A stretch of DNA of 32,000 nucleotides, taken from positions 25,178 through 57,177 of the forward strand of contig JAEXCN010000099.1 of the NCBI GenBank assembly GCA_023402175.1, read 5' to 3'. Positions 7,683-18,612 of this stretch are shown here, piece by piece. The position numbers and the translations under genes were made by a program. The notes under the pieces were generated by a model. The model ran no database searches. It was not told the origin of the DNA and worked only from the letters and a program-made list of their open reading frames with translations. Numbering within the stretch: position 1 is the stretch's first letter; each line of letters begins with the position of its first letter. Source of the stretch: Pseudomonadota bacterium (GTDB lineage: Bacteria; Myxococcota_A; Polyangia; Polyangiales; Polyangiaceae).

Positions 7683-7868
7683 GAGGAGCAGCGTAACTCG
7701 GTCGACGAGACAGAAGCTAAAATCTCGCTTGCTGAACGACGATGATTTCGGCGCCCGTTCGGGACATCGAAACAACCCCGGAACGGCTGGGCCCCGGTAA
7801 TCCGGCTCGTTTCGAGCCTCGTATGGGGTCGACAACTCGGCGCCAGCTAAAGAGCCGTATTTCCAGGG

Positions 7869-7952
7869 CGGAAGTCAGGCGACTCGAACACCATACCTTG
7901 CGGTACGCACCGGGTAGCGGCCGGGCCCGCGACCATTGGCGGTTTGACTTCC
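7869..7952 (-). tRNA. tRNA-Ser(GCU), class II, 84 nt
   Basis: Acceptor GGAAGTC/GACTTCC. D CCGC-CAATGGTC-GCGG. AC loop CCGCTAC (C33). Variable arm TACC-GCAA-GGTA. T-arm TGGTG-TTCGAGT-CGCCT. A8. Confidence 0.75.
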
Positions 7953-7988
7953 ATAAGCCACGTCGTCGTCGGCCCCGAAGGAACAATC

Positions 7989-8045
7989 GTCAGCTCACCG
8001 GGGTTGAACCGGCAGCCTCTGCTCTCGGCCACGTTGGCGAGCAGT
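7989..8045 (-). pseudogene. truncated tRNA-like remnant (hairpin plus T-arm, ~57 nt)
   Basis: Hairpin CTGCTC...GAGCAG followed by T-arm GCCGG-TTCAACC-CCGGT. No complete cloverleaf and only 5/7 acceptor pairs. Confidence 0.4.
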
Positions 8046-8118
8046 ACGGGGCGAGAGGATCGAACTCTCCTAGCCCTGCTTGTGAGGCAGGTGTCATCAC
8101 CAGATGAGCGGGCCCCGC
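8045..8118 (-). tRNA. tRNA-Val(CAC), 74 nt, degenerate D-stem
   Basis: Acceptor GCGGGGC/GCCCCGT (G1-U72). AC CCTGC-CTCACAA-GCAGG. T GAGAG-TTCGATC-CTCTC. C8, and D-stem GCTC/TGAC mispaired. Confidence 0.65.
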
Positions 8119-8157
8119 GTTCTCCGCCCCGAACCGCAGCTCGGAGCGTTTTGCCGG

Positions 8158-8231
8158 TTCCGGAGGAGGGATTCGCACCCCTCATCCCAGCGGTTCAAAG
8201 CCGCGGATCTTTGCTCTTGGACCACTCCGGA
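8158..8231 (-). tRNA. tRNA-Gln(UUG), 74 nt, non-canonical
   Basis: Acceptor TCCGGAG/CTCCGGA. AC loop CTTTGAA. T-loop TGCGAAT (G55). D-loop CAAGAGCAAA lacks GG. Confidence 0.6.
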
Positions 8232-8285
8232 TCGGGCGCGTCGTGAGCGCTCGTACTCGAGCGCGTCCAGGGCAAGACGCGCCGG

Positions 8286-8354
8286 TCGCTACGGGCAGAG
8301 TCGAACTGCCTGGGCCGCGCTCATGAGGCGCGCCCTCCTCCGAGGAACGCAGCG
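8286..8354 (-). tRNA. tRNA(CAU) Met/Ile2-type, 69 nt, mini D-arm
   Basis: Acceptor CGCTGCG/CGTAGCG. D CCTC-GGAG-GAGG (4-nt loop). AC CGCGC-CTCATGA-GCGCG. T GGCAG-TTCGACT-CTGCC. Confidence 0.65.
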
Positions 8355-8389
8355 ATGCTTGCGTTCTGCACGGATGCGAACGCAGGCGG

Positions 8390-8460
8390 AGCGGTGACCG
8401 AGAATCGCACTCGGATCTCGAGCGTGGCGGGCTCGGGTTCTACTCTTGAACTATCACCGC
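8390..8460 (-). tRNA. tRNA-Gly(GCC), 71 nt, non-canonical
   Basis: Acceptor GCGGTGA/TCACCGC. D GTTC-AAGAGTA-GAAC (no GG). AC CGAGC-CCGCCAC-GCTCG (C33). T CCGAG-TGCGATT-CTCGG (G55). Confidence 0.7.
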
Positions 8461-8566
8461 AGAGGCCGGGCGATGACACCCATCGCGCACGGGTAGAGCG
8501 GCCCTCGCACCGTCCTCATCCTTCGCTACCAGTGAGGTGCCCCGCTCTCTGGCCGTGGGCGGCACG

Positions 8567-8623
8567 TGAAAAGAGCTCGTCCCCAAGTCATGTCCGCTTG
8601 GAGCTGTCCCTCGTGGGGACGAG
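8567..8623 (-). terminator. possible intrinsic terminator downstream of rsr
   Basis: Minus sense: 10-bp GC stem GCTCGTCCCC/GGGGACGAGC followed by TCTTTTC. The apical loop is long (30 nt), so the call is weak. Confidence 0.35.
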
Positions 8624-8705
8624 CAGGTGATCGGCAACGAGGGGCGTGAAGACGGGCCTTCACGGGCATTTGCCGGATGAATTCGATCGAGTCGCAGATC
8701 GACAA

Positions 8706-10313
8706 TCAGATCGAGACGGACTCGATCTCGTGGAGAAAGGCGGAGCCGTCGGCGTCACCTTTCGCGAACGCGGCCACGATCTCGAAGACGGCATCGGAGA
8801 AACCGCCGACGTTCAGCACATCGCTGCGGTTCGCGACCTGCGTGGTCGCGTAGGGCTGCAGGTCGACGAGCACGAGCCTGGCGCGCGGATTGTTCGCACG
8901 GAGTCGCTCCCATTCCTCGGCCATGACGGTCGCTCTCGTCGCGTTCGATGCGCTCGGATCCACAGCGCGTGGCTCGAGCCTGAAGTCCGCCCACGACTGG
9001 TTGTCGGAGACGAAGACGACGAGGTCGGGGGCCATGCCGCGCGCATTGAGCCACCGCAGCGGCGCAGCGCACGAGGTCCCGCCGCTCGGGAGCGACGAGA
9101 GGAGCTCGGCGTTGGTGACCACCGAATCCAGCGCGTTGAGCTGACGACGAAGGGGGACGACGTCGTCCGAGAACGGCAGGACCGTCGCGCGCTCGTTCTT
9201 CCGGAGCAGCGCGGCAGTCGCGAGCGCGGCGACGTCGATGCAACGGACCTTGGAGGAGGCAGTCCCGCGCCGGCCCGTGACTGGAGAGTGCATCGACCCT
9301 GACACGTCCGGACACAGCGCGACGGAGCCGGCGACCTCGGGCACGTTCGCGACGGCGTGCTCGACGGAGCGAGCCAGCGCGTTGACGATCCCCGGCGGCA
9401 TGCTGGTCTCGACCGCGCGATATGCGGCGAGGAGCTGATAGGGGAGTGTGCGCGAGCGCTTCACGGCCTCGGCATCCGAGAGCTTCTCGGCGACGAGATC
9501 GACCATCGCGGGATCGGTGAAGACGCCGTGACGGTAGAGCGTGTTGAGGTTCTGGCGGAGCTGATTGAACGTCATCTTCTTCGCCAGCTCGGTCCAGTGC
9601 TGGGCGCGCAGTGGGAGAGCGGTGAGCATCTCGAACGGCACGTCCGGCAGAGGCTCCCGATCGTTCTTCTTCCAGGCTTCGAATGCCTGGGTGAGCGGCG
9701 GGAGCTTGGAGCAGTCCACGTTCTTTCCGATGAGGTAGCCGTAGAGGGCCTCACGAACGGCATCGGCTTCGCCCTTGTCGTTCCGCGGGGGAGGGCGAAC
9801 CATCTTGATGACGTCCGACATGGACGGGCTCTGACCGATGGACTGGCGGAAGATGGTCTCGGGGCTCTTCGCTGCGAACCATTCGCGGAGCGCTCGCTTC
9901 GGGGCCGAGCCGAACGACTTGCGGCCCGTGACACCGGAGCGAACGATCGCCACGAACGTCCGCAGCATCCGCGCGTCGTCGATGACGCGTGGGAAGACAC
10001 GCAGCATGAGGGCGACATCGCGCGCGGCGAGCCAGGCGACGAGGAACGCCGGGACGTCCTTCATCCTGCCGTGCTTGCGGCAATACACGGCCGTCTTTGC
10101 GACGAGCTCCGGGCTCACCGAGCTCGCGAGTGCCGCGACGTTCTCGAGCTGCTGCTCGTCGGTCGCGTAGAACGTGCCGTGAAACGTGCCGGTGACTGCG
10201 TATTGCGCCAGAGCATGCTCGGGCGGGAGCGCGTATGCCAGGCCGCCGGCTTCGTTGAATGCGTCGGCAACGGGGGCATTTCCTCCGTGACCAAATAGAT
10301 GCTTGTTCGGCAT
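8706..10313 (-). CDS. rsr: Ro60-related protein Rsr (TROVE domain plus vWA/MIDAS domain), 535 aa
   Basis: ATG 10313 preceded by AAGGAGAAACC. N-terminus NEAGGLAYAL...GTFHGTFYATDEQQ (TROVE-like). C-terminus ALCPDVSGSM (DxSxS MIDAS)...GGTSCAAPL...VFVSDNQSW. The track ORF extends to 10988 only because the upstream tRNA genes lack stops. Confidence 0.85.
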   Translation of the reverse strand: MPNKHLFGHGGNAPVADAFNEAGGLAYALPPEHALAQYAVTGTFHGTFYATDEQQLENVAALASSVSPELVAKTAVYCRKHGRMKDVPAFLVAWLAARDVALMLRVFPRVIDDARMLRTFVAIVRSGVTGRKSFGSAPKRALREWFAAKSPETIFRQSIGQSPSMSDVIKMVRPPPRNDKGEADAVREALYGYLIGKNVDCSKLPPLTQAFEAWKKNDREPLPDVPFEMLTALPLRAQHWTELAKKMTFNQLRQNLNTLYRHGVFTDPAMVDLVAEKLSDAEAVKRSRTLPYQLLAAYRAVETSMPPGIVNALARSVEHAVANVPEVAGSVALCPDVSGSMHSPVTGRRGTASSKVRCIDVAALATAALLRKNERATVLPFSDDVVPLRRQLNALDSVVTNAELLSSLPSGGTSCAAPLRWLNARGMAPDLVVFVSDNQSWADFRLEPRAVDPSASNATRATVMAEEWERLRANNPRARLVLVDLQPYATTQVANRSDVLNVGGFSDAVFEIVAAFAKGDADGSAFLHEIESVSI

Positions 10314-10403
10314 GGTTTCTCCTTTCCGAGCTCGTGTGAGGTGTCGGTCGTGCGCTTGCTCCGGCGCACGATCGTGTGTTGTTCCGGTTTCGAAGAGATG
10401 AGG

Positions 10404-10477
10404 CGTTCCCGACGGGATTCGAACCCGTGTTCCTGGCTTGAGAGACCAGAGTCCTTGGCCGTCTAGACGACGGGAAC
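10404..10477 (-). tRNA. tRNA-Glu(CUC), 74 nt, canonical
   Basis: GTTCCCG TC GTC-TAGACGGCCAAG-GAC T CTGGT-CTCTCAA-GCCAG GAAC ACGGG-TTCGAAT-CCCGT CGGGAAC G. Confidence 0.9.
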
Positions 10478-10519
10478 CGACGAGGAGCGCGCGGAGGCGC
10501 GGGCGCAGTCGAAAGATGA

Positions 10520-10647
10520 AGGTCGTCCGAGTGTCTCGAGCATCGGTGTTGACTTGGGAGTCGAACCCAAAACGGTCAGCTTCTGAGGCTGGTGTCCTTC
10601 CATTGGACGAGTCGAGTGCGTGTGAGCTCGGGTCGAGCGGACGACCT
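10520..10647 (-). ncRNA. Y-RNA-like candidate: tRNA-like domain (anticodon CAG, short variable loop, weak acceptor) clamped by a long terminal stem module
   Basis: 10-bp H1 AGGTCGTCCG/CGGACGACCT, 7x7 internal loop (CTCGACC / AGACACT), 5-bp H2 CGAGC/GCTCG, then TCACACGC. This leads into D GTCC-AATGGAA-GGAC, AC CCAGC-CTCAGAA-GCTGA and T TTGGG-TTCGACT-CCCAA. The same module occurs in units A-D. Lies about 200 nt upstream of rsr. Confidence 0.5.
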
Positions 10648-10721
10648 GGATGCAGCGGCTGGAGTCGCACCAGCGTCTCGAGCTTATGAGGCTCGCGGGG
10701 TGGCTCCTCCCCCACGCTGCA
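10647..10721 (-). tRNA. tRNA(CAU) Met/Ile2-type, 72 nt plus encoded CCA
   Basis: Acceptor TGCAGCG/CGCTGCA. D GGGG-AGGAGCCA-CCCC. AC CGAGC-CTCATAA-GCTCG. T GCTGG-TGCGACT-CCAGC (G55). T73-CCA. Confidence 0.75.
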
Positions 10722-10760
10722 ATGAGTCTCCGGATCGAGAGTGTTCTCGCGTCTGGAGGG

Positions 10761-10830
10761 CACCTTCGCCGGGAGTCGAACCCGGAGAACGAGCTTCGGA
10801 GGCTCGGCCCTGATTCCGCAGGACGAAGGT
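10761..10830 (-). tRNA. tRNA-Arg(CCG), 70 nt
   Basis: Acceptor ACCTTCG/CGAAGGT. AC CGAGC-CTCCGAA-GCTCG. T CCGGG-TTCGACT-CCCGG. D-arm CCTG-CGGAAT-CAGG shifted by 1 nt. Confidence 0.7.
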
Positions 10831-10834
10831 AGGG

Positions 10835-10923
10835 AGGAAGAAAGAGGTCTCGAACCCCACACGCTCTTCCGAGCGTGCGCATTGCTTTCGAGGCAAGCCC
10901 GGCGCCCAGCCGGTTTTTCATCC
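10835..10923 (-). tRNA. tRNA-Ser(CGA), class II, 89 nt
   Basis: Acceptor GGATGAA/TTCTTCC (one U-U). AAA linker. D CCGG-CTGGGCG-CCGG. AC loop CTCGAAA. Variable arm ACGCTC-GGAA-GAGCGT. T-loop TTCGAGA. Confidence 0.75.
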
Positions 10924-10930
10924 ATGTCAG

Positions 10931-11003
10931 TGGTCGGTGAGGGAATCGAACCCCCTACGCAGAGCTTTTCAAACTCCCGCTCTACCAATTGAGCTTACCG
11001 ACC
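10931..11003 (-). tRNA. tRNA-Phe(GAA), 73 nt, canonical
   Basis: GGTCGGT AA GCTC-AATTGGTA-GAGC G GGAGT-TTGAAAA-GCTCT GCGTA GGGGG-TTCGATT-CCCTC ACCGACC A. Confidence 0.9.
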
Positions 11004-11015
11004 GTTTCAACGTGC

Positions 11016-11090
11016 TGGCCTCCCCGCCAGGAATCGAACCTGGACAACTGGCTTCGTAGACCGGTGCGTGGGATCCACCACGACGAGGAG
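11016..11090 (-). tRNA. tRNA-Arg(ACG), 72 nt plus encoded CCA
   Basis: Acceptor CTCCTCG/CGGGGAG. AC loop CTACGAA (stem has a C-A mismatch). T CCAGG-TTCGATT-CCTGG. 5-bp shifted D-stem CGTGG/CCACG. Confidence 0.7.
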
Positions 11091-11094
11091 AGGG

Positions 11095-11182
11095 AGGAAG
11101 GCAGAGGACTCGAACCTCACGCGGCTCGACACCGCGCGAATCGCGTTCCAGACGATCTCCGCCCCCGGCGGATTTGCCTTCC
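11095..11182 (-). tRNA. tRNA-Ser(GGA), class II, 88 nt
   Basis: Acceptor GGAAGGC/GCCTTCC. AAA linker. D TCCG-CCGGGGG-CGGA. AC ATCGT-CTGGAAC-GCGAT. Variable arm CGCGG...CCGCG. T-loop TTCGAGT. Paralog of Ser(CGA). Confidence 0.75.
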
Positions 11183-11216
11183 GGGTATTGCAATGCGCCT
11201 GCTCATGCGAGCGCGG

Positions 11217-11291
11217 TCAGGACGGCAGGATTCGAACCTGCGCTCTCCAGTCCCCCAGACTGGCGCTTTTGCCGGGCTAAGCTACGCCCTG
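11217..11291 (-). tRNA. tRNA-Pro(GGG), 75 nt
   Basis: CAGGGCG TA GCTT-AGCCCGGCAA-AAGC G CCAGT-CTGGGGG-ACTGG AGAGC GCAGG-TTCGAAT-CCTGC CGTCCTG A. Confidence 0.85.
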
Positions 11292-11390
11292 AGGCTTTCA
11301 CGTAGTCGTGGAAATCAAGAATAAAGTGGTCCAGTTTCACGTCATGGACCAGGACGCGGGAGCTCTGTCGACGCTCACGCGATCGACGCC

Positions 11391-11924
11391 TCATGCAGAG
11401 AGCGGAGCCGAAGCCGTGTAGCCGTCGCAGTACGGCTGCCAGACATCCGGCAGATCACCCTCATCGAGACGGATCGGCGGCACGGCGGGCAGCCAGGTCG
11501 GCTTCTTCGGCTGCCGCAGCAGCTTCATGCCGGCCTGCTCAGGCGTGCGGCTCCCCTTGCGATCGTTGCATGCGTAGCAGGAGGTGACGATGTTCTCCCA
11601 AACCGTCTTTCCTCCCTGCACGCGCGGGATGACGTGGTCGTAGTTGAGGCCTCTGATCGGCTTCTTGTCACCGCAGTACTGGCAGCGGAACCTGTCGCGC
11701 GTAAAGACGTTCATCCGGGAGAAGCGGACCGACTGCTTCGTCGACACCGACCCCTTCTTCAGGCGGACCACGGCGGGCGTCATCATCGCGATGCTCGGGG
11801 CACGGAGCTCCGCGTCCCAGGTCTCGATGACTTCGACCTTGCCGAGATAAGCCAGCACGACGGCGCGCTGCCAGGGAATGATCTTGTGAGGCGCCATCCA
11901 TGGAGTCAGCATCAGCGTTTGCAT
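11391..11924 (-). CDS. HNH endonuclease (177 aa)
   Basis: CQYCG...DHVIPRVQGGKTVWENIVTSCYACNDRKG (HNH with Cys4 zinc motif). N-terminus IIPWQRAVVLAYLGKVEVIE is typical of the small stand-alone HNH family. Same strand as the tRNA array. Confidence 0.85.
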   Translation of the reverse strand: MQTLMLTPWMAPHKIIPWQRAVVLAYLGKVEVIETWDAELRAPSIAMMTPAVVRLKKGSVSTKQSVRFSRMNVFTRDRFRCQYCGDKKPIRGLNYDHVIPRVQGGKTVWENIVTSCYACNDRKGSRTPEQAGMKLLRQPKKPTWLPAVPPIRLDEGDLPDVWQPYCDGYTASAPLSA

Positions 11925-12064
11925 GGGTCACCGTTTCTTTCTCGTTTTCAAGGCTCGATCTCCTTTTCGGAGGGATGAAGAAGTCGTGCGGGATGCACGA
12001 CGACGGGCGTCATCAGAGATAGCGAACGGACGGTGCGCTGATGTTGCTCGGATATGGCGAGTAG

Positions 12065-12149
12065 TGTCACCGGAGGGAGTCGAACCCTCAAACTCGCAAC
12101 GGAGCCCAGCATCTCGGGCTGGCGTGTATTCCAGTTCCACCACGGTGAC
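12065..12149 (-). tRNA. tRNA-Leu(GAG), class II, 85 nt
   Basis: Acceptor GTCACCG/CGGTGAC, A73. 3-bp D-stem. AC CCAGC-CCGAGAT-GCTGG (C33). ~16-nt variable arm. T GAGGG-TTCGACT-CCCTC. Confidence 0.8.
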
Positions 12150-12186
12150 GTGTCGCGTCCGTCTCGCGCTCGGCGATCTTGGACGT

Positions 12187-12266
12187 TGGTACCGACGGAG
12201 GGATTCGAACCCTCACAACACACAGTTTCTGAGACTGCGGCCTCTACCAGATTGGGCCACGTCGGC
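12187..12266 (-). tRNA. tRNA with Leu anticodon CAG but only a 7-nt variable loop (77 nt plus CCA)
   Basis: GCCGACG TG GCC-CAATCTGGTAGA-GGC C GCAGT-CTCAGAA-ACTGT GTGTTGT GAGGG-TTCGAAT-CCCTC CGTCGGT A CCA. Leu-like D-arm but no long variable arm. Confidence 0.65.
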
Positions 12267-12298
12267 ATGAAGCGCGATCCGCAGGGCGGCTTGCGCGG

Positions 12299-12373
12299 TC
12301 TGTGCAGGAGGATTCGAACCTCCAATCCCTCCGACCCGAACGGAGTGCTCTAGCCAGGTTGAGCCATGCACAG
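12299..12373 (-). tRNA. tRNA-Pro(CGG), 75 nt, canonical
   Basis: CTGTGCA TG GCTC-AACCTGGCTA-GAGC A CTCCG-TTCGGGT-CGGAG GGATT GGAGG-TTCGAAT-CCTCC TGCACAG A (C1-G72, A73). Confidence 0.9.
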
Positions 12374-12412
12374 AGAAACGACGATGATCGACGGGAGCTC
12401 GAGCCATCGCCG

Positions 12413-12484
12413 TGGTGGACCAGTCGGGAGTCGCACCCGAACCATCTGCTTGCAAGACAGACGTCTCCCCTCGGAGACAAGCCC
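12413..12484 (-). tRNA. tRNA-Ala(UGC), 69 nt plus CCA, mini D-arm
   Basis: Acceptor GGGCTTG/CTGGTCC with G3-U70. D CTCC-GAGG-GGAG (4-nt loop). AC TCTGT-CTTGCAA-GCAGA. T TCGGG-TGCGACT-CCCGA (G55). Confidence 0.7.
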
Positions 12485-12523
12485 ATGTTGAATCACTGCA
12501 TGACGGCGGGACTGGCCCGCCGG

Positions 12524-12596
12524 TGCGGCGCGCAGGGATCGCACCTGCCTCCTCCTGCTCGTCATGCAGGCGCAGTCGCTAGACTGCCAGCGCCGC
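12524..12596 (-). tRNA. tRNA-Val(GAC), 73 nt
   Basis: GCGGCGC TG GCAG-TCTAGCGA-CTGC G CCTGC-ATGACGA-GCAGG AGGAG GCAGG-TGCGATC-CCTGC GCGCCGC A. G55, and no GG in the D-loop. Confidence 0.75.
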
Positions 12597-12619
12597 TCTT
12601 CTCGTCGAAGAGAGCTTCG

Positions 12620-12692
12620 TGGATCACCTGCGAATCGAACGCAGTGCGGGCTCCTTATCAGAGAGTCCAGGGTGACCAACCCGTCGTGATCC
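12620..12692 (-). tRNA. tRNA-Ile(GAU), 73 nt
   Basis: GGATCAC GA CGGG-TTGGTCAC-CCTG G ACTCT-CTGATAA-GGAGC CCGCA CTGCG-TTCGATT-CGCAG GTGATCC A. Confidence 0.8.
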
Positions 12693-12715
12693 GTCGTTTA
12701 TGTCTGGTGAACGAT

Positions 12716-12787
12716 TGGAGAGCCGAGAGGGAGTTGAACCCTCGCGCGCCGTTTTGCAGACGACGATCCTCCCCGGAGAATCGGCTC
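12716..12787 (-). tRNA. tRNA-Cys(GCA), 69 nt plus CCA, mini D-arm
   Basis: Acceptor GAGCCGA/TCGGCTC. D TCC-GGGGA-GGA. AC GTCGT-CTGCAAA-ACGGC. T GAGGG-TTCAACT-CCCTC. T73-CCA. Confidence 0.65.
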
Positions 12788-12852
12788 GAAGAAGTGGGCG
12801 CAGTTCCCTGTTGGCCGACGTCACGTGCGCGTCGGACGTTGGGGCTGCGCGG

Positions 12853-12923
12853 AGCGGGCAGAGGGAATCGCACCCTCATTGTCAGTTTGGAAGACTGCGG
12901 TCCTACTGTTGGACGATACCCGC
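12853..12923 (-). tRNA. tRNA-Gly(UCC), 71 nt
   Basis: GCGGGTA TC GTCC-AACAGTA-GGAC C GCAGT-CTTCCAA-ACTGA CAAT GAGGG-TGCGATT-CCCTC TGCCCGC T. G55, and no GG in the D-loop. Confidence 0.75.
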
Positions 12924-13119
12924 AGGATATGAATCGAAGTATCGCAAGCCTCGACGAGATTGACGAAGACGTAGGTGATCGGCAGCTCGCGCTGCCGGGC
13001 ACCATGATGCACGAGCGAGCAGCAGCCGCTCTTGCATCATCGGCACATTGAAGCCGCCCGCGAAGGCAGCTTCCGTTCGCCCCGCAAGGAGAGAGTCCAC
13101 CGAGGTGGTCTCCTGAGAA

Positions 13120-13225
13120 GCGCTCGGCTGGAGTCCGCGGAGCGCTCTCTGACTCTCCCTATGCCATCGCTAGGTCGGTCGCCCGACGTTCGCTACCTTA
13201 GGACCGTTATAGTTACGGATGTAGT
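13120..13225 (-). ncRNA. 23S rRNA domain IV (H69-H71) look-alike fragment inside a ~400-nt non-tRNA spacer
   Basis: Minus sense 13218..13189 reads CCGTAACTATAACGGTCCTAAGGTAGCGAA, which as I recall it is the universally conserved 23S segment and contains the I-CeuI site. It is followed by GTCGGG..CCGACCT..CGATGGC..GAGAGTCAGAGA..CCGCGG, patches colinear with 23S H70/H71 but with the loops deleted. Confidence 0.6.
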
Positions 13226-13322
13226 CCTCGTCGGCATTCGAGACCGACGCTGATGTTGCTCGTGTCGTGTGAGATCTGTTGTTCGTAATTTTCGAGATCG
13301 CTGCCCAGGGATGGGGCAGCGC

Positions 13323-13398
13323 TGGTGGAACCGGCCGGACTCGCACCGGCAACCTCCTCGATGCCATCGAGGCGCTCTCCTGGCTGAGCTACGGCCCC
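13323..13398 (-). tRNA. tRNA-Ala(GGC), 73 nt plus CCA
   Basis: GGGGCCG TA GCTC-AGCCAGGA-GAGC G CCTCG-ATGGCAT-CGAGG AGGTT GCCGG-TGCGAGT-CCGGC CGGTTCC A CCA. G3-U70, G55. Confidence 0.85.
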
Positions 13399-13425
13399 TT
13401 TCGTTCGGATGTCCTTCGCGTGTGG

Positions 13426-13499
13426 TGGTGGAGCGACGGGGAATCGCACCCCGATCCCTGCAATGCGAATGCAGCGTTCTCCTGTTGAACTATCGCCCC
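13426..13499 (-). tRNA. tRNA-Ala(CGC), 71 nt plus CCA
   Basis: GGGGCGA TA GTTC-AACAGGA-GAAC G CTGCA-TTCGCAT-TGCAG GGAT CGGGG-TGCGATT-CCCCG TCGCTCC A CCA. G3-U70, G55. Confidence 0.8.
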
Positions 13500-13533
13500 A
13501 GGGTCCCCACGTGGTGGGGAGCAGACAAGTCGG

Positions 13534-13604
13534 CAGGCCGCGAAGGAATCGAACCCTCTCTCCGGGGGTTGGAATCCCGGCTGGTCACCATGACTCTACG
13601 GCCT
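13534..13604 (-). tRNA. tRNA-Trp(CCA), 71 nt, aberrant D-arm
   Basis: Acceptor AGGCCGT/GCGGCCT, G73. AC CGGGA-TTCCAAC-CCCCG (A31-C39 mismatch). T GAGGG-TTCGATT-CCTTC. The D region pairs only as GTC-ATGGT-GAC. Confidence 0.65.
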
Positions 13605-13631
13605 GTGCTCTCGAGCGCGGTGCGCTTGCAG

Positions 13632-13703
13632 CGCCTCGTAGGGGAATCGAACCCCTCTCGCCCCATAGACAGTGGGGTTGCGACGCCAGTCGCATCACGA
13701 GGC
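13632..13703 (-). tRNA. tRNA-Asp(GUC), 72 nt
   Basis: GCCTCGT GA TGCG-ACTGGCGT-CGCA A CCCCA-CTGTCTA-TGGGG CGAG AGGGG-TTCGATT-CCCCT ACGAGGC G. Position 37 is U. Confidence 0.75.
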
Positions 13704-13727
13704 AATGAACGTCGATATTCGTGGCGG

Positions 13728-13799
13728 TGTCCTCGGCAGGAGTCGAACCCGCGTCTGCCGGTTTAGAAGACCGGCGCCTCTCCGCTCGGCCACGAGGAC
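13728..13799 (-). tRNA. tRNA-Arg(UCU), 72 nt
   Basis: GTCCTCG TG GCC-GAGCGGAGA-GGC G CCGGT-CTTCTAA-ACCGG CAGAC GCGGG-TTCGACT-CCTGC CGAGGAC A. The D-arm looks like a class II type. Confidence 0.75.
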
Positions 13800-13820
13800 G
13801 TTCTTGCTCTCCTGGCTCGG

Positions 13821-13885
13821 CGTCCCCGGCAGGAGTCGAACCTGCGTCGACCGGATTAGGAGCCTATCCGTTCGGCCAGGATGAC
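13821..13885 (-). pseudogene. tRNA-like paralog of Arg(UCU) with ~7-nt deletion in the anticodon arm (65 nt)
   Basis: GTCATCC TG GCC-GAACGGATA-GGC T CC..TAATCCGG TCGAC GCAGG-TTCGACT-CCTGC CGGGGAC G. Two acceptor mismatches and no 5-7-5 anticodon arm. Confidence 0.5.
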
Positions 13886-13929
13886 AGAGGCTGTCTGCGC
13901 AGGCGAAGAGTGGATCGGTGCGCGGCCGG

Positions 13930-14002
13930 GGTAGCGTACGGGAATCGCACCCGCCTCCACTGAGTCACAATCAGCCCTCGTCACTAGACGAGTAACGCTA
14001 CC
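13930..14002 (-). tRNA. tRNA-His(GUG) with encoded G-1, 73 nt
   Basis: G-1 GTAGCGT TA CTCG-TCTAGTGA-CGAG G GCTGA-TTGTGAC-TCAGT GGAG GCGGG-TGCGATT-CCCGT ACGCTAC C73. G55. Confidence 0.8.
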
Positions 14003-14084
14003 ATGTATTCAGATGCTCATTCGAGTCGGTGATGTCAACCTCGAGCCTGAATTTCGTCTGCCGTTGATAGGCACTTCGTCGAAC

Positions 14085-14159
14085 TGGTGCTCCCGATCGG
14101 AATCGAACCGATACCTTCCGCTTGAAAGGCGGAGATCCTGACCACTAGATGACGGGAGC
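14085..14159 (-). tRNA. tRNA-Glu(UUC), 72 nt plus CCA
   Basis: GCTCCCG TC ATC-TAGTGGTCAG-GAT C TCCGC-CTTTCAA-GCGGA AGGT ATCGG-TTCGATT-CCGAT CGGGAGC A CCA. Confidence 0.85.
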
Positions 14160-14165
14160 AAACGT

Positions 14166-14308
14166 GTCGTCCGAGTGAGAAGGTCGTTGTCATGTGAATG
14201 ACGGGTTGACTGCCCGTTGCCTTACCACTTGGCTACGATGGCGAAACGCCAGCGGCTGGATTCGAACCAGCGATTCGATTGCGTGTAGGACCTGTTCGAT
14301 CGGACGAC
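14166..14308 (-). ncRNA. permuted tRNA-like ncRNA unit A (Y-RNA/YrlA-like candidate)
   Basis: Minus-sense order: H1 GTCGTCCG, loop ATCGAAC, H2 AGGTC, CTACACGCAATCGAATC. Then T-arm GCTGG-TTCGAAT-CCAGC, acceptor 3' strand CGCTGGC, cap GTTTC, acceptor 5' strand GCCATCG, TA. Then D GCC-AAGTGGTAA-GGC, hairpin ACGGG-CAGTCAA-CCCGT, H2' GACCT, loop TCTCACT, H1' CGGACGAC. Confidence 0.5.
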
Positions 14309-14457
14309 GACGAGGGGGCCGTAGAGCGCCGACGATGATCGGCGCGGTAAAGGAGCGCCTCGTCAGGTGCGTGCCTGCGAGGCGTGGAGCTCAGAGGCGA
14401 GCTCGGCAAGCTCGGCGGCGTCCGGTGCGTTGGACGCGCGGGCTGCTGAAGAAAAGT

Positions 14458-14627
14458 CCTCACCCGAGTGAAAAAGCCGGTTGGATGGTTCCATCATTCA
14501 AGATGAGTGCCTTTACCAGTTAGGCTATCGCTGCGTACGATTTGCGGTGGCGGGCACCGTGAGCAGCGAGTCGGATTCGAACCGACATTTCCTCGATTGC
14601 GTGTAGGGCATCTTCGGTCGGGTGAGG
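14458..14627 (-). ncRNA. permuted tRNA-like ncRNA unit B
   Basis: H1 CCTCACCCG/CGGGTGAGG, loops ACCGAAG / TTTCACT, H2 ATGCC/GGCTT, CTACACGCAAT. T GTCGG-TTCGAAT-CCGAC. Acceptor TCGCTGC, 28-nt cap, GCAGCGA. D GCC-TAACTGGTAAA-GGC. Hairpin TCATC-TTGAAT-GATGG. Confidence 0.5.
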
Positions 14628-14663
14628 GAAATCGGAATGCGCTTAGCTCGCTGCGCGAGCATC

Positions 14664-14744
14664 TGGTCCCCCGTGATGGAATCGAACCACCTACCGAAAG
14701 GCACCGGGTTACGACCGGCTGCTCCGCCATGGAGCGAACGAGGG
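14664..14744 (-). tRNA. tRNA-Tyr(GUA), 78 nt plus CCA
   Basis: CCCTCGT TC GCTC-CATGGCG-GAGC A GCCGG-TCGTAAC-CCGGT GCCTTTCGGTA GGTGG-TTCGATT-CCATC ACGGGGG A CCA. C33, 11-nt variable region. Confidence 0.75.
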
Positions 14745-14752
14745 AAGAGGGG

Positions 14753-14909
14753 CACCCGAGTGAGAAAGCCGTGTTGTCGTCTGAATGGACGAGCGCCTTA
14801 CCATTAGGCCACGCTGGAATAGGTGTTTTGGAGCTCGATGGCTCACGGCTCCAGCGGACGGAATCGAACCGTCGTGTCTCATTGCGTGTAGGGCATTCCC
14901 TGGCGGGTG
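14753..14909 (-). ncRNA. permuted tRNA-like ncRNA unit C
   Basis: H1 CACCCG/CGGGTG, loops CCAGGGA / TCTCACT, H2 ATGCC/GGCTT, CTACACGCAAT. T GACGG-TTCGATT-CCGTC. Acceptor CGCTGGA, 31-nt cap, TCCAGCG (identical to the tRNA-Asn acceptor). D GCC-TAATGGTAA-GGC. Hairpin TCGTC-CATTCA-GACGA. Confidence 0.5.
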
Positions 14910-14913
14910 ACGG

Positions 14914-14985
14914 AGCCCACGTCCGGAGTCGAACCGGATCCTCCCGTGTACGAGACGGGTGCTCGACCATTCGAGCTGCGCGGGC
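14914..14985 (-). tRNA. tRNA-Thr(CGU), 72 nt, canonical
   Basis: GCCCGCG CA GCTC-GAATGGTC-GAGC A CCCGT-CTCGTAC-ACGGG AGGA TCCGG-TTCGACT-CCGGA CGTGGGC T. Confidence 0.9.
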
Positions 14986-14988
14986 AGG

Positions 14989-15042
14989 GGCCCCATGTAC
15001 TCATGGGGAACGAAAGAGGCGGGCCCCATGTACTCATGGGGA
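14989..15042. repeat. two direct copies of a 21-bp hairpin element (GGCCCCATGTACTCATGGGGA), period 33 bp
   Basis: Copies at 14989-15009 and 15022-15042. Each contains the inverted repeat CCCCATG-tact-CATGGGG. A related CCATG-ttgct-CATGG occurs at about 15486-15500. Confidence 0.7.
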
Positions 15043-15118
15043 AAAGAAGGTGCTCGCGGTGCGCGCGTCGCCTGGGTGGGAGGCGCGCGCGCCGGCGCGA
15101 GCGGGTGAGAAGAATGTC

Positions 15119-15264
15119 TCGTCCGAGTGGAGAAGCCGGTGCAAGTGCTCGTATGCGAAACGAGTGCCTTCCCATTAGGCTAGCAGCCCTGTGCCTTGCG
15201 GCTGGTGGACCACGTTGGAGTCGAACCAACATGTTGTGCGTGTAAGGCTTGTCCGAGCGGACGA
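15119..15264 (-). ncRNA. permuted tRNA-like ncRNA unit D (tRNA-Ala-type body)
   Basis: H1 TCGTCCG/CGGACGA, loops CTCGGAC / CTCCACT, H2 AAGCC/GGCTT, TTACACGCACAACAT. T GTTGG-TTCGACT-CCAAC. GTGGTCC-A-CCA, 13-nt linker GCCGCAAGGCACA, then GGGCTGC (7 pairs including G3-U70). TA, D GCC-TAATGGGAA-GGC, hairpin CTCGT-TTCGCAT-ACGAG (CGC). Confidence 0.55.
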
Positions 15265-15269
15265 AGAAG

Positions 15270-15341
15270 CTCCAGCGGAAGGAATCGAACCTTCGAAGGA
15301 CCGGTTAACGGCCGGCTGCCTGACCATTCGGCTTCGCTGGA
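15270..15341 (-). tRNA. tRNA-Asn(GUU), 72 nt
   Basis: TCCAGCG AA GCC-GAATGGTCA-GGC A GCCGG-CCGTTAA-CCGGT CCTTC GAAGG-TTCGATT-CCTTC CGCTGGA G. C33, U1-A72, G73. Confidence 0.8.
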
Positions 15342-15521
15342 ATACGTGCTCGTCGCGTTCGTGCCGCGCTGCTGCCGTCTCGACGAACCCGATCTCTTCC
15401 GAGGCAGGACGACGAAGCGGTCAGCGCGCACGAGACGCGACGAGCCTTGGCGCCAAGTTGTCATAGAGCGAGGGACCTCGAGCTCCCCATGTTGCTCATG
15501 GAGAACGAGACCGAGAGTCCT

Positions 15522-15595
15522 TGGTTCCGAGCACAGGATTCGAACCTGTCTTCCTGGTTTCAGAGGCCAGTGTCCTGCCGCTAGACGAGCCCGGA
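15522..15595 (-). tRNA. tRNA-Gln(CUG) with Glu-type body, 71 nt plus CCA
   Basis: TCCGGGC TC GTC-TAGCGGCAG-GAC A CTGGC-CTCTGAA-ACCAG GAAG ACAGG-TTCGAAT-CCTGT GCTCGGA A CCA. Close in body to Glu(CUC) at 10404. Confidence 0.75.
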
Positions 15596-15653
15596 GCAGG
15601 CGGCGGCGTGCGAAGGTCGCAAGTCGCCGGTGCCACGTCGTTCGACGCAGCAG

Positions 15654-15726
15654 TAGGTCCGGAGGGAATCGAACCCTCACCACCCCGGGTAAGAGCCGGG
15701 TGCGCTTCCGATTGCGCTACGGACCT
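15654..15726 (-). tRNA. tRNA-Lys(CUU), 73 nt, canonical
   Basis: AGGTCCG TA GCGC-AATCGGAA-GCGC A CCCGG-CTCTTAC-CCGGG GTGGT GAGGG-TTCGATT-CCCTC CGGACCT A. Confidence 0.9.
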
Positions 15727-15788
15727 GTATTTGGCGCGATGCGACGAACCGGGGCAGCACTGCCCGCAGCCGCACGCATCGCGGTGAG

Positions 15789-15861
15789 TGGGACGCGAGG
15801 GAGTCGAACCCTCATCCCTCGGCTTAAAAGGCCGGTGCTCGGCCGATTGAGCTAGCGCCCC
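15789..15861 (-). tRNA. tRNA-Lys(UUU), 73 nt, canonical
   Basis: GGGGCGC TA GCTC-AATCGGCC-GAGC A CCGGC-CTTTTAA-GCCGA GGGAT GAGGG-TTCGACT-CCCTC GCGTCCC A. First gene of the array in the direction of transcription. Confidence 0.9.
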
Positions 15862-16541: not shown

Positions 16542-17052
16542 GCACGCCCGGGATCTCCGGACGCGCCTCCATTGGTGGAGAGGTTGCTTCTGTAGACGTT
16601 CCAGGCAGGAGCGTCATTCAAGCTATAGCTCGCGATGTCGGACGACGCAAGGATCTAAATCGAAAAAGTGATCGCCGCGGAGCACTCGACGCAGACGGAT
16701 CAAACGCGGTTGTTGGGCAACGCGGGCAGAATCCATCGATCTTCTGCGACTCGGAAGCTGCGAGCGACCAGCGATGGGCTGGGCCGGTGACCTACGCGAC
16801 GAGCCTGGCGCGTCGCGCGCCTCGCGTTCGTCGGGATCGTTCACGTGTACGGTCCGCCAGCTCCGCCCGAGACGAATCTGACCTGTCAGCGATGAGAAGA
16901 CGACAACAATGCTGGCGCTGGGGGGATGTCTTGGCGTTCACCCGCTGGCCCGCGGGCCGGCCCGATCTGGCCCGGGCCAGGGGGCGCGATGCGTAACTCA
17001 TCGGAATGACGGCAACGAGGTGCAGGCATGCCCATCGCAATGCTGCCCCGTC

Positions 17053-18612
17053 ATGCTCGCCATCGCGCATAGCGCCGTTCTTGCGGGGATCGAGTCTTCA
17101 CCGGTTCGCGTCGAGATACAGGCCGAACGAGGCATTCCGACATTCGAGCTCGTCGGGCTCGCCGAGGCGGCCGTCCGGGAGAGCCGTGTGCGGGTGAAGA
17201 GCGCGCTCGCGGGAGTAGGCGTCGACATCAGCGAGTTCCGAGTCACGGTCAACCTCGCGCCTGCCGACGTGAAGAAGAGCGGCAGCTCCTTCGACCTGGC
17301 GATTGCGCTCGGGACGTTGGTCGCGCTCGGCGTTCTTCCCGAAGGAACGCTCGACGACGTGCTCGTCCTCGGAGAGCTGTCGCTCAACGGTAACGTCCAG
17401 AACCTGCGCGGCGTGGTCGCGCATCTGCTCGGCGCGAAGAAGCGCGGAGTCGCACGCGCGATCGTACCGTTCGCGAACGAGCGCGAAGCGGCACTGGTCG
17501 ATGGTGTCGAGGTCGAGCTGGCGTCGACGCTCGCCGAGGTCGTCGATGCGCTCTGCGGGCGTGCATCTCTCCGGACCCCGCGCCCCGCGCCGGCGGACGT
17601 CGTTCGACGCCCGGTCGACGATCTCGCCGACGTGCGCGGCCAACACGGCGCGCGACGTGCGCTCGAGATCGCCGCTTCCGGTGGGCACAACCTCCTCATG
17701 ATGGGACCTCCCGGCGCAGGAAAGACGATGCTCGCGCGCCGCCTGCCCGGCATCCTTCCGCTGCTCACGCGCGAAGAGGCCCTCGAGGTGATCGCGATCC
17801 ACGGCGTTGCCGGGCTGGTCGGTAGCGCGTCGAGCGTTGCCGTCGAGCGGCCCTTCCGCGCTCCTCACCATACCGCGAGCGACGTCGCGCTCGTGGGCGG
17901 CGGCGAGCACGCGCGGCCAGGTGAGGTCAGTCTCGCGCATCACGGCGTCCTCTTCCTCGACGAGCTCGCGGAGCTACGGCGTACCGCGCTCGAAGCCCTG
18001 CGCCAGCCGCTCGAGGACGGGACCGTGACGATCTGTCGGATGCGCATGACACTGACGTTTCCCGCTCGTCCGATGCTCATCGGAGCGACGAACCCGTGTC
18101 CCTGCGGAAACTTCGGCGACGGGACCAATCGGTGCAATTGCAGTCACGAGGCGATCCGCTCGTATCGCCGGAGACTGAGCGGTCCGCTGCTCGACCGTGT
18201 GGATCTGCACGTCGTTCTTCCGCGCGTCGATCTCCGGGAGCTGCACGCGACCGGTGGCGGTGAGCCGAGCGCCGCGGTCCGAGCGCGTGTCGAGAAGGCG
18301 CGTGCGGTCCAGCATGCTCGCTTTCGCGCCGGAGAGGTCGCGGCTCAGACCAACGCGCATCTCGCCCAGCGCGACGTCGAGCGCATCTGCAAGCTCGATA
18401 CGAAAGGGCGAGCGCTTCTCGCACAGGCCGTCGAGCGACGGGGCCTATCGGCGCGTGCGTACGGCAAGGTTCTCCGCGTCGCACGGACGATCGCGGACAT
18501 GGACGGAGCGACGGCGATTGCGCCGGGGCACGTCGTCGAAGCCGTCGCGGGTCGCGTGCTCGATCGCGATCAGTCGAACGGCCGCCCAATTTCCGAGACC
18601 GACGCGGCCTGA
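17053..18612 (+). CDS. comM: YifB/ComM-family Mg-chelatase-like AAA+ ATPase
   Basis: ATG 17053 gives [21 protein letters not shown], a typical N-terminus (Lon-protease-like ChlI domain). Walker [23 protein letters not shown], and a C-terminal Mg_chelatase_C region. Confidence 0.9.

Follow-up and report, generated by a model that had tools for sequence, protein, structure and literature searches.

What is the purpose of a set of tRNA genes in which two of the most constant features of tRNA, the uridine at position 33 (U33) and the purine at position 37, are repeatedly replaced? The question is raised by an array of 34 tRNA genes at positions 7869–15861, on the minus strand of a 32,000-nucleotide stretch of DNA (contig JAEXCN010000099.1, positions 25,178–57,177; referred to below as the window) from a soil myxobacterium of the family Polyangiaceae. 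Five tRNAs of the array have C33, and a sixth, tRNA-Asp, has U37. U33 is described as invariant in E. coli (PMC1635277) and in elongator tRNAs generally (PMC5041475), so five C33 in the window are far above that background. Reviews give few special-purpose exceptions to the rules for positions 33 and 37; many initiator tRNA-Met of eukaryotes carry C33, and Candida tRNA-Ser(CAG) carries G33 (PMC5041475).

The answer to which we give about an even chance, reading it from the genes and their relatives, is that the unusual loops would be inherited signatures of tRNA lineages that belong to a class of dense, phage-related tRNA arrays known as L-arrays. The six tRNAs would be working supernumerary tRNAs in which position 33 is weakly constrained, with C33 held by selection in some isoacceptors. 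A preliminary description of the locus had proposed instead that the altered loops protect a spare tRNA set from anticodon nucleases.

Six Unusual Anticodon Loops

All six genes lie on the minus strand. C33 is present in tRNA-Ser(GCU) (class II, 7869–7960; loop positions 32–38 CCGCUAC, C33 at 7919), tRNA-Gly(GCC) (8388–8460; CCGCCAC, C33 at 8429), which also has G55 in the T-loop, tRNA-Leu(GAG) (class II, 12064–12149; CCGAGAU, C33 at 12116), tRNA-Tyr(GUA) (14664–14744; UCGUAAC, C33 at 14713), which has a C1:G72 pair, a long variable arm and an encoded CCA, and tRNA-Asn(GUU) (15269–15341; CCGUUAA, C33 at 15310). The loop of tRNA-Asp(GUC) (13631–13703) is CUGUCUA, with U37 at 13667 and A38; this tRNA has a 5-bp D-stem and a 4-nt D-loop. 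On re-reading, all six loops agreed exactly with the preliminary description.

The anticodon stem forms five of five pairs in this register, and four of five in tRNA-Ser. The preliminary description had allowed that another stem register might restore U33. Shifts of −3 to +3 and loop sizes of 5–9 were tried, and no shifted register with a 7-nt loop had an equal stem. The sole shifted register with U33 and four of five pairs is that of tRNA-Asn at +2, giving the anticodon UAA and C37; the Infernal tRNA model aligned the C of tRNA-Asn to its U33 with high posterior probability.

Assembly error is excluded for three of the six genes by an independent assembly: in a separate Logan assembly of the same sample (L002), the Gly, Ser-GCU and Leu-GAG genes are identical. 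The Gly, Leu and Asp features are, in addition, common to relatives. It should be noted that the Ser-GCU gene gave no ARAGORN call in the window even at a relaxed threshold and no Rfam call at an E-value of up to 5. Its assignment is based on a hand-drawn cloverleaf together with ARAGORN-called orthologues in the related loci L006–L008.

Within the window, C33 is confined to tRNAs with G34 (5 of 14, compared with 0 of the 20 others; Fisher p = 0.007). The number of C33 is typical for the array family, in which a rate of 12% predicts about 4 in 34 tRNAs.

Positions 33 and 37 in Related Arrays

Three sets of tRNAs were compared: those of myxobacterial genome arrays (n = 407), of metagenome contigs with this array (n = 278) and of viral arrays (n = 1137). 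The counts are phylogenetically non-independent, the metagenome loci were chosen by a pattern that covers the D-arm and anticodon arm of tRNA-Asn, and chromosomal DNA may have been misclassified as viral in some of the IMG/VR contigs. C33 was found in 49 of 407 (12%), 37 of 278 (13%) and 95 of 1137 (8.4%) tRNAs, respectively. Over the 1,822 tRNAs of the three sets, the departures at position 33 are 181 C, 3 A and 2 G.

C33 is fixed or frequent in particular isoacceptors. In Gly-GCC it occurs in 11 of 14 genome and 6 of 6 metagenome genes (17 of 20 combined) and in 2 of 28 viral ones, and among the genome orthologues N32 takes all four bases while C33 stays. The corresponding values for Leu-GAG are 6 of 12, 4 of 4 and 6 of 23. 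For Val-GAC they are 3 of 9, 1 of 4 and 17 of 21, the viral copies having a median pairwise identity of 55%. Asn-GUU has C33 in 3 of 12 genome genes, in 6 of 27 metagenome loci and in none of 33 viral genes; the change is recurrent, for it appears on three or more backgrounds although the rest of this tRNA is nearly invariant. Compared with the Asn genes of L003 and L004, its closest relatives, the window gene has two differences, and position 33 is one of them. Two C33 are specific to the window lineage: the Ser-GCU orthologues in L006, L007 and L008 have U33, and the only close orthologue of the Tyr gene (L003) reads CUGUAAC. The altered loops are a heritable trait, partly conserved among relatives, and not random damage.

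The association with G34 reported in the preliminary description stands within the window and fails as a wider rule, being weaker in the myxobacterial relatives and absent in the viral arrays. In the relatives, C33 accompanies C34 in Glu-CUC, Thr-CGU, Val-CAC, Pro-CGG and Arg-CCG, and U34 in Ala-UGC and Gln-UUG. The rates in viral arrays are 10.3% with G34, 9.8% with U34 and 5.6% with C34; besides Val-GAC, the viral C33 are concentrated in Val-UAC (11 of 28), Glu (13 of 45) and Ala-UGC (6 of 29). A C33 rule specific to G34 was, therefore, rejected.

The frequency of C33 correlates with the G+C content of the arrays (Spearman 0.45, p = 0.003), being 5–6% below 55% G+C and 10–11% above. In two Polyangiaceae metagenome-assembled genomes, L015 and L016 (arrays around 7800–13100), 11 of 19 and 10 of 17 array tRNAs have C33, including Phe, His, Ile, Thr, Pro and Ala.

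Among the 407 myxobacterial array tRNAs, a pyrimidine at position 37 (Y37) is confined to Asp. It accompanies A38 in seven of the eight Asp-GUC genes of the genome arrays, the eighth being located in a Y-RNA-like element, and it is found in all 6 Asp genes of the metagenome contigs (3 U, 3 C) and, among 25 Asp genes of viral arrays, in 5. The viral tRNA-Asp with U37 share the body of the window tRNA-Asp, with its 5-bp D-stem and 4-nt D-loop, at up to 78% identity (L054), and Y37 is kept across phages of 46–68% G+C. Judging from these genes, Asp Y37 is a conserved lineage trait common to phages rather than a chance mutation. Our searches of the literature on C33/U33 and on position 33 in phage tRNAs found no account of frequent C33 or pyrimidine 37 in array or phage elongator tRNAs.

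Integrity of the tRNA Genes

The six tRNAs are best read as functional variants rather than products of decay, because their anticodons, identity elements and compensatory stem changes have been kept. Their stems are intact, and their anticodons are retained across orthologues. In orthologue pairs, the anticodon-stem positions differ in 4–38% of cases, with compensatory partners, positions 32 and 38 in 24–27% and position 33 in 9%. Gly-GCC has the glycine identity set (G1:C72, C2:G71, G3:C70 and U73), and the discriminator bases are A73 in Leu and Tyr and G73 in Asn, Ser and Asp. Elsewhere in the array, G3:U70 is found in all three tRNA-Ala and G-1:C73 in tRNA-His. Pseudogene status was considered for the six tRNAs and excluded on the same grounds; it fits only a decayed copy of tRNA-Arg(CCU) (13819–13891, minus strand), which has a 7-nt deletion in the anticodon stem.

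Two further departures were observed outside the anticodon loop. The near-universal U55 is replaced by G in 9 of the 34 window tRNAs, in which the T-loop reads UGCGA and not UUCGA: His (13928–14001), Ala-CGC (13426–13499), Ala-GGC (13323–13398), Gly-UCC (12851–12923), Val-GAC (12522–12596), Ala-UGC (12413–12484), Met (10647–10721), Gly-GCC (8388–8460) and Gln-UUG (8156–8231). In related arrays, G55 was found in 93 of 407 myxobacterial tRNAs compared with 23 of 1137 viral ones. The C1:G72 pair of the array tRNA-Tyr is a first pair of the archaeal/eukaryotic type, combined here with a long variable arm of the bacterial style; several related arrays have a second Tyr gene with the normal G1:C72 at the array end, and the window is without it.

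Composition and Chromosomal Location of the Array

The array comprises 34 tRNA genes in 7,993 bp (4.3 per kb), all on a single strand and with short spacers. They cover all 20 amino acids with anticodons that mostly fit G/C-ending codons, and the order of isoacceptors is non-periodic, with no repeating unit. Besides the tRNAs, the array holds a Ro60 gene, an HNH endonuclease gene, five Y-RNA-like elements, one rRNA-mimic RNA and the decayed tRNA copy. ARAGORN found 31 tRNA genes on the minus strand (8044–15861); Rfam added Asn-GUU (15270–15341) and Ala-UGC, a more permissive ARAGORN run added Ser-CGA, and Ser-GCU (7869–7960) was found by direct reading of the strand.

The window is part of an 88.7-kb metagenome scaffold, and no tRNA genes were found in about 10 kb of this scaffold past each window end. 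On one side, the array is flanked by genes for a Ser/Thr kinase, an FGE-sulfatase-like protein, an M18 aminopeptidase and an AHSA1-like protein, and on the other by comM, recA, a short-chain dehydrogenase and a sigma-54 activator. The same array with the same gene order and the same flanks (recA–comM on one side, AHSA1–M18–FGE–STK on the other) was found in about ten genomes of the Labilithrix clade, and the order of array genes is kept in L003–L010 and L021. These shared features indicate that the array is an old chromosomal resident transmitted by vertical descent within the clade; a phage genome or a recent phage insertion was ruled out by this conserved synteny, which implies long residence. 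No near match to the array was present among 50,697 phage records. In public sequencing runs, at most 12% of the sampled words were present in any run, and none of these was an RNA run.

The gene comM (16909–18612, plus strand) adjoins the array. In other bacteria, comM is a frequent integration site for genomic islands, and its position here may mark how the array first entered the chromosome.

Links to Phages and to Other Arrays

The two protein-coding genes of the array connect it with phages. The Ro60/Rsr orthologue (8706–10313, minus strand; 535 aa) has TROVE and vWA domains according to Pfam, with NCBIfam Rsr below its cut-off. Its relatives at 48–87% identity are found in metagenome-assembled genomes of Labilithrix, Polyangiaceae and other myxobacteria. 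The TROVE protein of Myxococcus phage Mx1, which is encoded beside the Mx1 HNH gene and tRNAs, shares 45% identity with it. A first scan of IMG/VR gave no Ro60 relative; a later tblastn search found homologues with 41–49% identity inside HNH-linked tRNA arrays of four viral contigs. Three of these four viral arrays begin with the same gene order as the window array, namely Lys-UUU, Lys-CUU, Gln-CUG, Asn-GUU.

The HNH endonuclease gene (11391–11924, minus strand; 177 aa, Pfam HNH/HNH_5) has homologues in 175 phage records, the best being that of phage Mx1, and 80 homologues on IMG/VR viral contigs. Among 54 distinct viral loci with tRNAs, 42 hold at least eight tRNAs within 8 kb, often less than 100 nt from the HNH gene. 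The linkage is not absolute, since the HNH gene of Agrobacterium phage Atu_ph07 sits apart from tRNAs. The window protein also matches, with 40.9% identity in tblastn (E = 8e-21), an HNH gene 200 bp upstream of the trn operon of the Anabaena plasmid pCC7120delta, which we infer from its position to be all8564.

Across the Labilithrix clade the array HNH protein is 77–90% identical. Its conservation is on a par with that of housekeeping enzymes and above that of Ro60, which is unexpected for a selfish homing endonuclease.

Viral contigs and phage Mx1 share HNH, Ro60 and gene order with the window array, which supports the earlier proposal of a spare, phage-related tRNA set. The phage link holds for the ancestry of the array and does not extend to its present location, which is one conserved chromosomal site across a myxobacterial clade and not a phage. 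By these comparisons, the array is, presumably, a phage-derived L-array that has been domesticated at a single chromosomal site in Labilithrix-like myxobacteria.

Y-RNA-like Elements and an rRNA Mimic

Between the tRNA genes, 0.2–5 kb from Ro60, lie five elements that resemble Y RNAs, all on the minus strand. Four of them (15123–15244, 14756–14890, 14464–14605 and 14171–14287, each extended at both ends by some 20 nt of outer stem) have a permuted tRNA-like domain with the arms in the order T-arm, closed acceptor stem, D-arm, hairpin, and their long terminal stem exits at the variable-loop position. The flanks hold a conserved YACACGCA motif and a CUCACUCGG-like motif, and the outer stem covaries (CGTCCG/CGGACG compared with CACCCG/CGGGTG). 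The fifth element (10527–10624, likewise extended) has an unpermuted tRNA-like core with the same flanking motifs and an outer stem, GGTCGTCCG/CGGACGACC, as in the other four. ARAGORN reports this core as a tRNA-Leu(CAG) (10545–10616). We rejected it as a real or anticodon-switching tRNA: it forms the core of one of the Y-RNA-like elements, it has no long variable arm, and its "anticodon" changes in every orthologue (Gly, Asp, Cys, Arg and others). The gathering score of the Rfam YrlA family (RF02553) was not reached in the window, the best match having 21.6 bits (14219–14273) against a threshold of 69.

A structured RNA of about 300 nt (12950–13255, minus strand) carries a near-exact copy of 23S rRNA helix 69 together with shortened helices that are 70/71-like. 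The copied part is the I-CeuI site region, CCGUAACUAUAACGGUCCUAAGGUAGCGAA. The helix 69-like core recurs in L003, L004, L006, L011 and L016, the RNA being placed at about 6795–7075 in L003, about 5680–6010 in L004, about 6490–6715 in L006, near 3737 in L011 and near 13196 in L016; the element can be aligned across L003, L004 and L006, and its two closing helices covary. It could be a decoy or a Ro60 ligand.

Anticodon Loops and Nucleases

The published data on loop recognition bear directly on the proposal of nuclease evasion. Colicin E5 recognises YGUN, and a U-to-C substitution at position 33 leaves its substrate fully susceptible (PMC1635277). Since C33 substrates are cut as well as U33 ones, the C33 of tRNA-Tyr and tRNA-Asn cannot be E5 evasion, contrary to what the preliminary description had suggested. 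The gamma-toxin of K. lactis is likewise unaffected by U33C, and it fails to cleave its Glu substrate when position 37 is altered in any way (PMC2275089). In published assays with these two nucleases, then, the substitution at position 33 blocks neither. CdiA-CT(EC536) cuts between positions 32 and 33 (PMC11724271), and resistance to host tRNases has been proposed for phage tRNAs whose loops carry substitutions (PMC10264068).

In the one L-array that has been studied, that of Anabaena, cleavage was greater for array tRNAs than for housekeeping ones. Some of its tRNAs were cleaved under stress when the housekeeping tRNAs tested were not, and the authors suggest a role as a sponge; the array, which is supernumerary and horizontally spread, is induced by translational stress, and its tRNAs are charged and found on polysomes (PMC8421152). 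In the window, a search for anticodon nucleases with PADLOC among ten open reading frames (ORFs) found none, the only matches being weak HNH-domain hits (PtuB-like) for the array HNH. Overall, nothing that we found shows that the odd loops protect against tRNA-cutting toxins.

Weighing the Explanations

If the reading given at the outset is correct, position 33 of redundant array tRNAs would be weakly constrained for decoding, and C33 would drift in under GC pressure. It would then be held by selection in some isoacceptors, such as Gly-GCC here and Val in phage arrays, and likewise Y37 in Asp. The likeliest selective reason would be that the array tRNAs present a changed view, compared with the housekeeping set, to proteins that read the loop, such as ribonucleases or the transglycosylase that inserts queuosine, either as escape or as decoy. 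The bacterial queuosine-inserting transglycosylase needs U33-G34-U35; hence, C33 in tRNA-Asn and tRNA-Tyr might prevent queuosine. Several points weigh against this reading. The indifference of colicin E5 and gamma-toxin to U33C leaves C33 with no demonstrated protective value, and C33 is not needed for the function of an L-array, for the Anabaena array has none. The isoacceptor pattern, drawn from non-independent counts in which some "viral" contigs are possibly chromosomal, may be largely shared ancestry rather than selection. That the loops differ from those of the housekeeping set is assumed from general knowledge, and the function of the array tRNAs is read from their genes.

The main rival is near-neutral drift, which we regard as possible and still rather doubtful. 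The tRNAs would then be redundant and probably seldom expressed, U33 would turn to C33 by GC bias, the isoacceptor pattern would be shared ancestry, and the variants would have no function of their own. The rise of C33 with G+C agrees with this, as do the Asn, Tyr and Ser-GCU changes, which are confined to the window lineage, U33 being retained in the closest relatives, the lineages L015 and L016 with C33 in over half of their array tRNAs, the decayed gene in the array, and an Anabaena array that works with U33 throughout. It accounts less well for a position 33 that varies less (9%) than positions 32 and 38 (24–27%) and most stem positions, and for changes that are nearly all from U to C and hardly ever to a purine. 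Among the viral Val-GAC tRNAs, which are very divergent, C33 stands at 81%, and low-GC arrays still have it in 5–6% of tRNAs; in Gly-GCC, N32 runs over four bases beside a constant C33; and Asp Y37 has been retained in phages of widely different G+C. The earlier proposal, in which the spare set resists nucleases of the E5, PrrC or VapC type as a counter-defence or toxin-resistance reservoir, seems unlikely. The phage type of the array, the resistance proposed for loop-substituted phage tRNAs, the cut site of CdiA-CT(EC536) and the importance, in principle, of position 37 for gamma-toxin speak for it. Yet E5 needs only YGUN, gamma-toxin tolerates U33C, tRNA-His keeps U33 and tRNA-Asp keeps U33-G34-U35, and the tRNAs in which C33 is commonest, those for Gly, Leu and Val, are not targets of E5; there was no nuclease gene among the window ORFs tested, and it was the Anabaena array tRNAs, not the housekeeping ones, that were cleaved.

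We consider it quite improbable that the array tRNAs have a non-translational role, in which, alongside the Y-RNA-like mimics and Ro60, they would act on RNA-binding proteins as sponges or ligands instead of decoding, and would not need a strict U-turn. The sponge role proposed for Anabaena, the presence of five tRNA mimics, Ro60 and an rRNA mimic in the same array, and the absence of U55 from 9 of 34 window tRNAs are in its favour. However, the anticodons fit the G/C-ending codon preference of the host and are kept across orthologues, the identity elements for synthetases are retained, and the Anabaena array tRNAs are charged and on polysomes. Least probable of all, to the point of being hardly credible, is that the odd loops are absent from mature RNA, either because the genes are dead or because C33 is edited to U33 after transcription. 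Low Rfam scores for several array tRNAs and the failure of both finders to call Ser-GCU would be explained. The compensatory stem changes and the near-invariant sequences across genomes that differ by 13–50% in Ro60 argue to the contrary; the true pseudogene among these genes has a deletion, the array showed no deaminase gene, and we know of no editing of C33 in bacteria.

A broader scheme, built on analogy and in our view unlikely, would treat the array as a phage-derived translation back-up island whose tRNAs are made orthogonal to loop-reading enzymes by C33, Y37 and G55. The HNH protein would be a nuclease acting on tRNA and not a homing enzyme, with the altered loops as marks of "self" tRNAs that survive it, and Ro60 with the Y-like and helix 69 mimics would handle or decoy damaged RNA. 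The analogy for the HNH protein is PtuB, an HNH protein of retron Eco7 that is linked to degradation of tRNA-Tyr.

The significance of the loops lies in their distribution. Features counted among the most constant of tRNA are replaced in a phage-spread class of arrays, C33 occurring in about one in ten tRNAs and being fixed in particular isoacceptors, and the Asp lineage with Y37 is common to phages and bacteria. Pairs of tRNAs that differ as U33/C33 or A37/U37 offer a handle on the purpose of long tRNA arrays and on how much of the loop "rule book" serves decoding as opposed to recognition by other proteins. When gene finders and surveys are tuned to canonical tRNAs, arrays of this kind and the tRNA mimics embedded in them are under-reported.

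Comparison with Known Systems

Among natural tRNAs without U33 (Grosjean and Westhof 2016, PMC5041475), the window tRNAs resemble the known cases in that the change occurs in an otherwise functional tRNA. Those cases differ in being single special-purpose tRNAs, whereas here C33 is found in 8–13% of elongator tRNAs across a whole class of arrays.

The phage tRNAs of mycobacteriophage cluster C1 and T5 for which evasion of nucleases has been proposed (van den Berg et al. 2023, PMC10264068) and those that escape PARIS and retron Eco7 (PMC11464382, PMC11555353) likewise form large extra sets of phage type with non-canonical loops. In contrast, the window array is not phage-borne, and its changes fall on U33 and R37, both near-universal, and not on determinants specific to a nuclease. 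The window tRNAs are, therefore, outside the class of phage tRNAs that evade a known nuclease, having neither phage encoding nor, in the published assays with colicin E5 and gamma-toxin, a substitution at position 33 that blocks cleavage.

The TROVE/Ro60, HNH, tRNA and peptidyl-tRNA hydrolase module of Myxococcus phage Mx1 is closer: its Ro60 is 45% and its HNH 42% identical to those of the window, both lie among tRNAs, and the phage infects the same host phylum. It differs in that only three tRNAs are annotated in that stretch. The Y-RNA-like elements recall YrlA-type Y RNAs (Chen et al. 2014, PMC4201824) in their proximity to Ro60, long terminal stem and tRNA-like domain; they differ in being embedded in a tRNA array in five copies, four of them with all cloverleaf arms, and in staying below the Rfam threshold. 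The YrlA survey dropped matches that overlap tandem tRNA genes (PMC4201824).

The best match is the L-array, as represented by the trn operon of the delta plasmid of Anabaena/Nostoc PCC 7120 (Santamaria-Gomez et al. 2021, PMC8421152) and described as "tRNA array units" (Tran et al. 2016, PMC4758250). Like it, the window array is dense, non-periodic and on one strand, with more than 20 tRNAs; it falls within the limits of at least 20 tRNAs and at least two per kb, a homologous HNH gene is linked to both (41% identity), and related arrays are found in phages. Against this likeness, the Anabaena array has U33 in each of its 24 tRNAs and G37 in its tRNA-Asp. The window array is, moreover, chromosomal and vertically inherited at one site, it adds Ro60, five Y-RNA-like elements and an rRNA mimic, and no rtcB gene is nearby. 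Taken together, what is new relative to known L-arrays is vertical inheritance at one chromosomal site, the company of Ro60 with Y-like RNAs, the rRNA mimic and the non-canonical anticodon loops.

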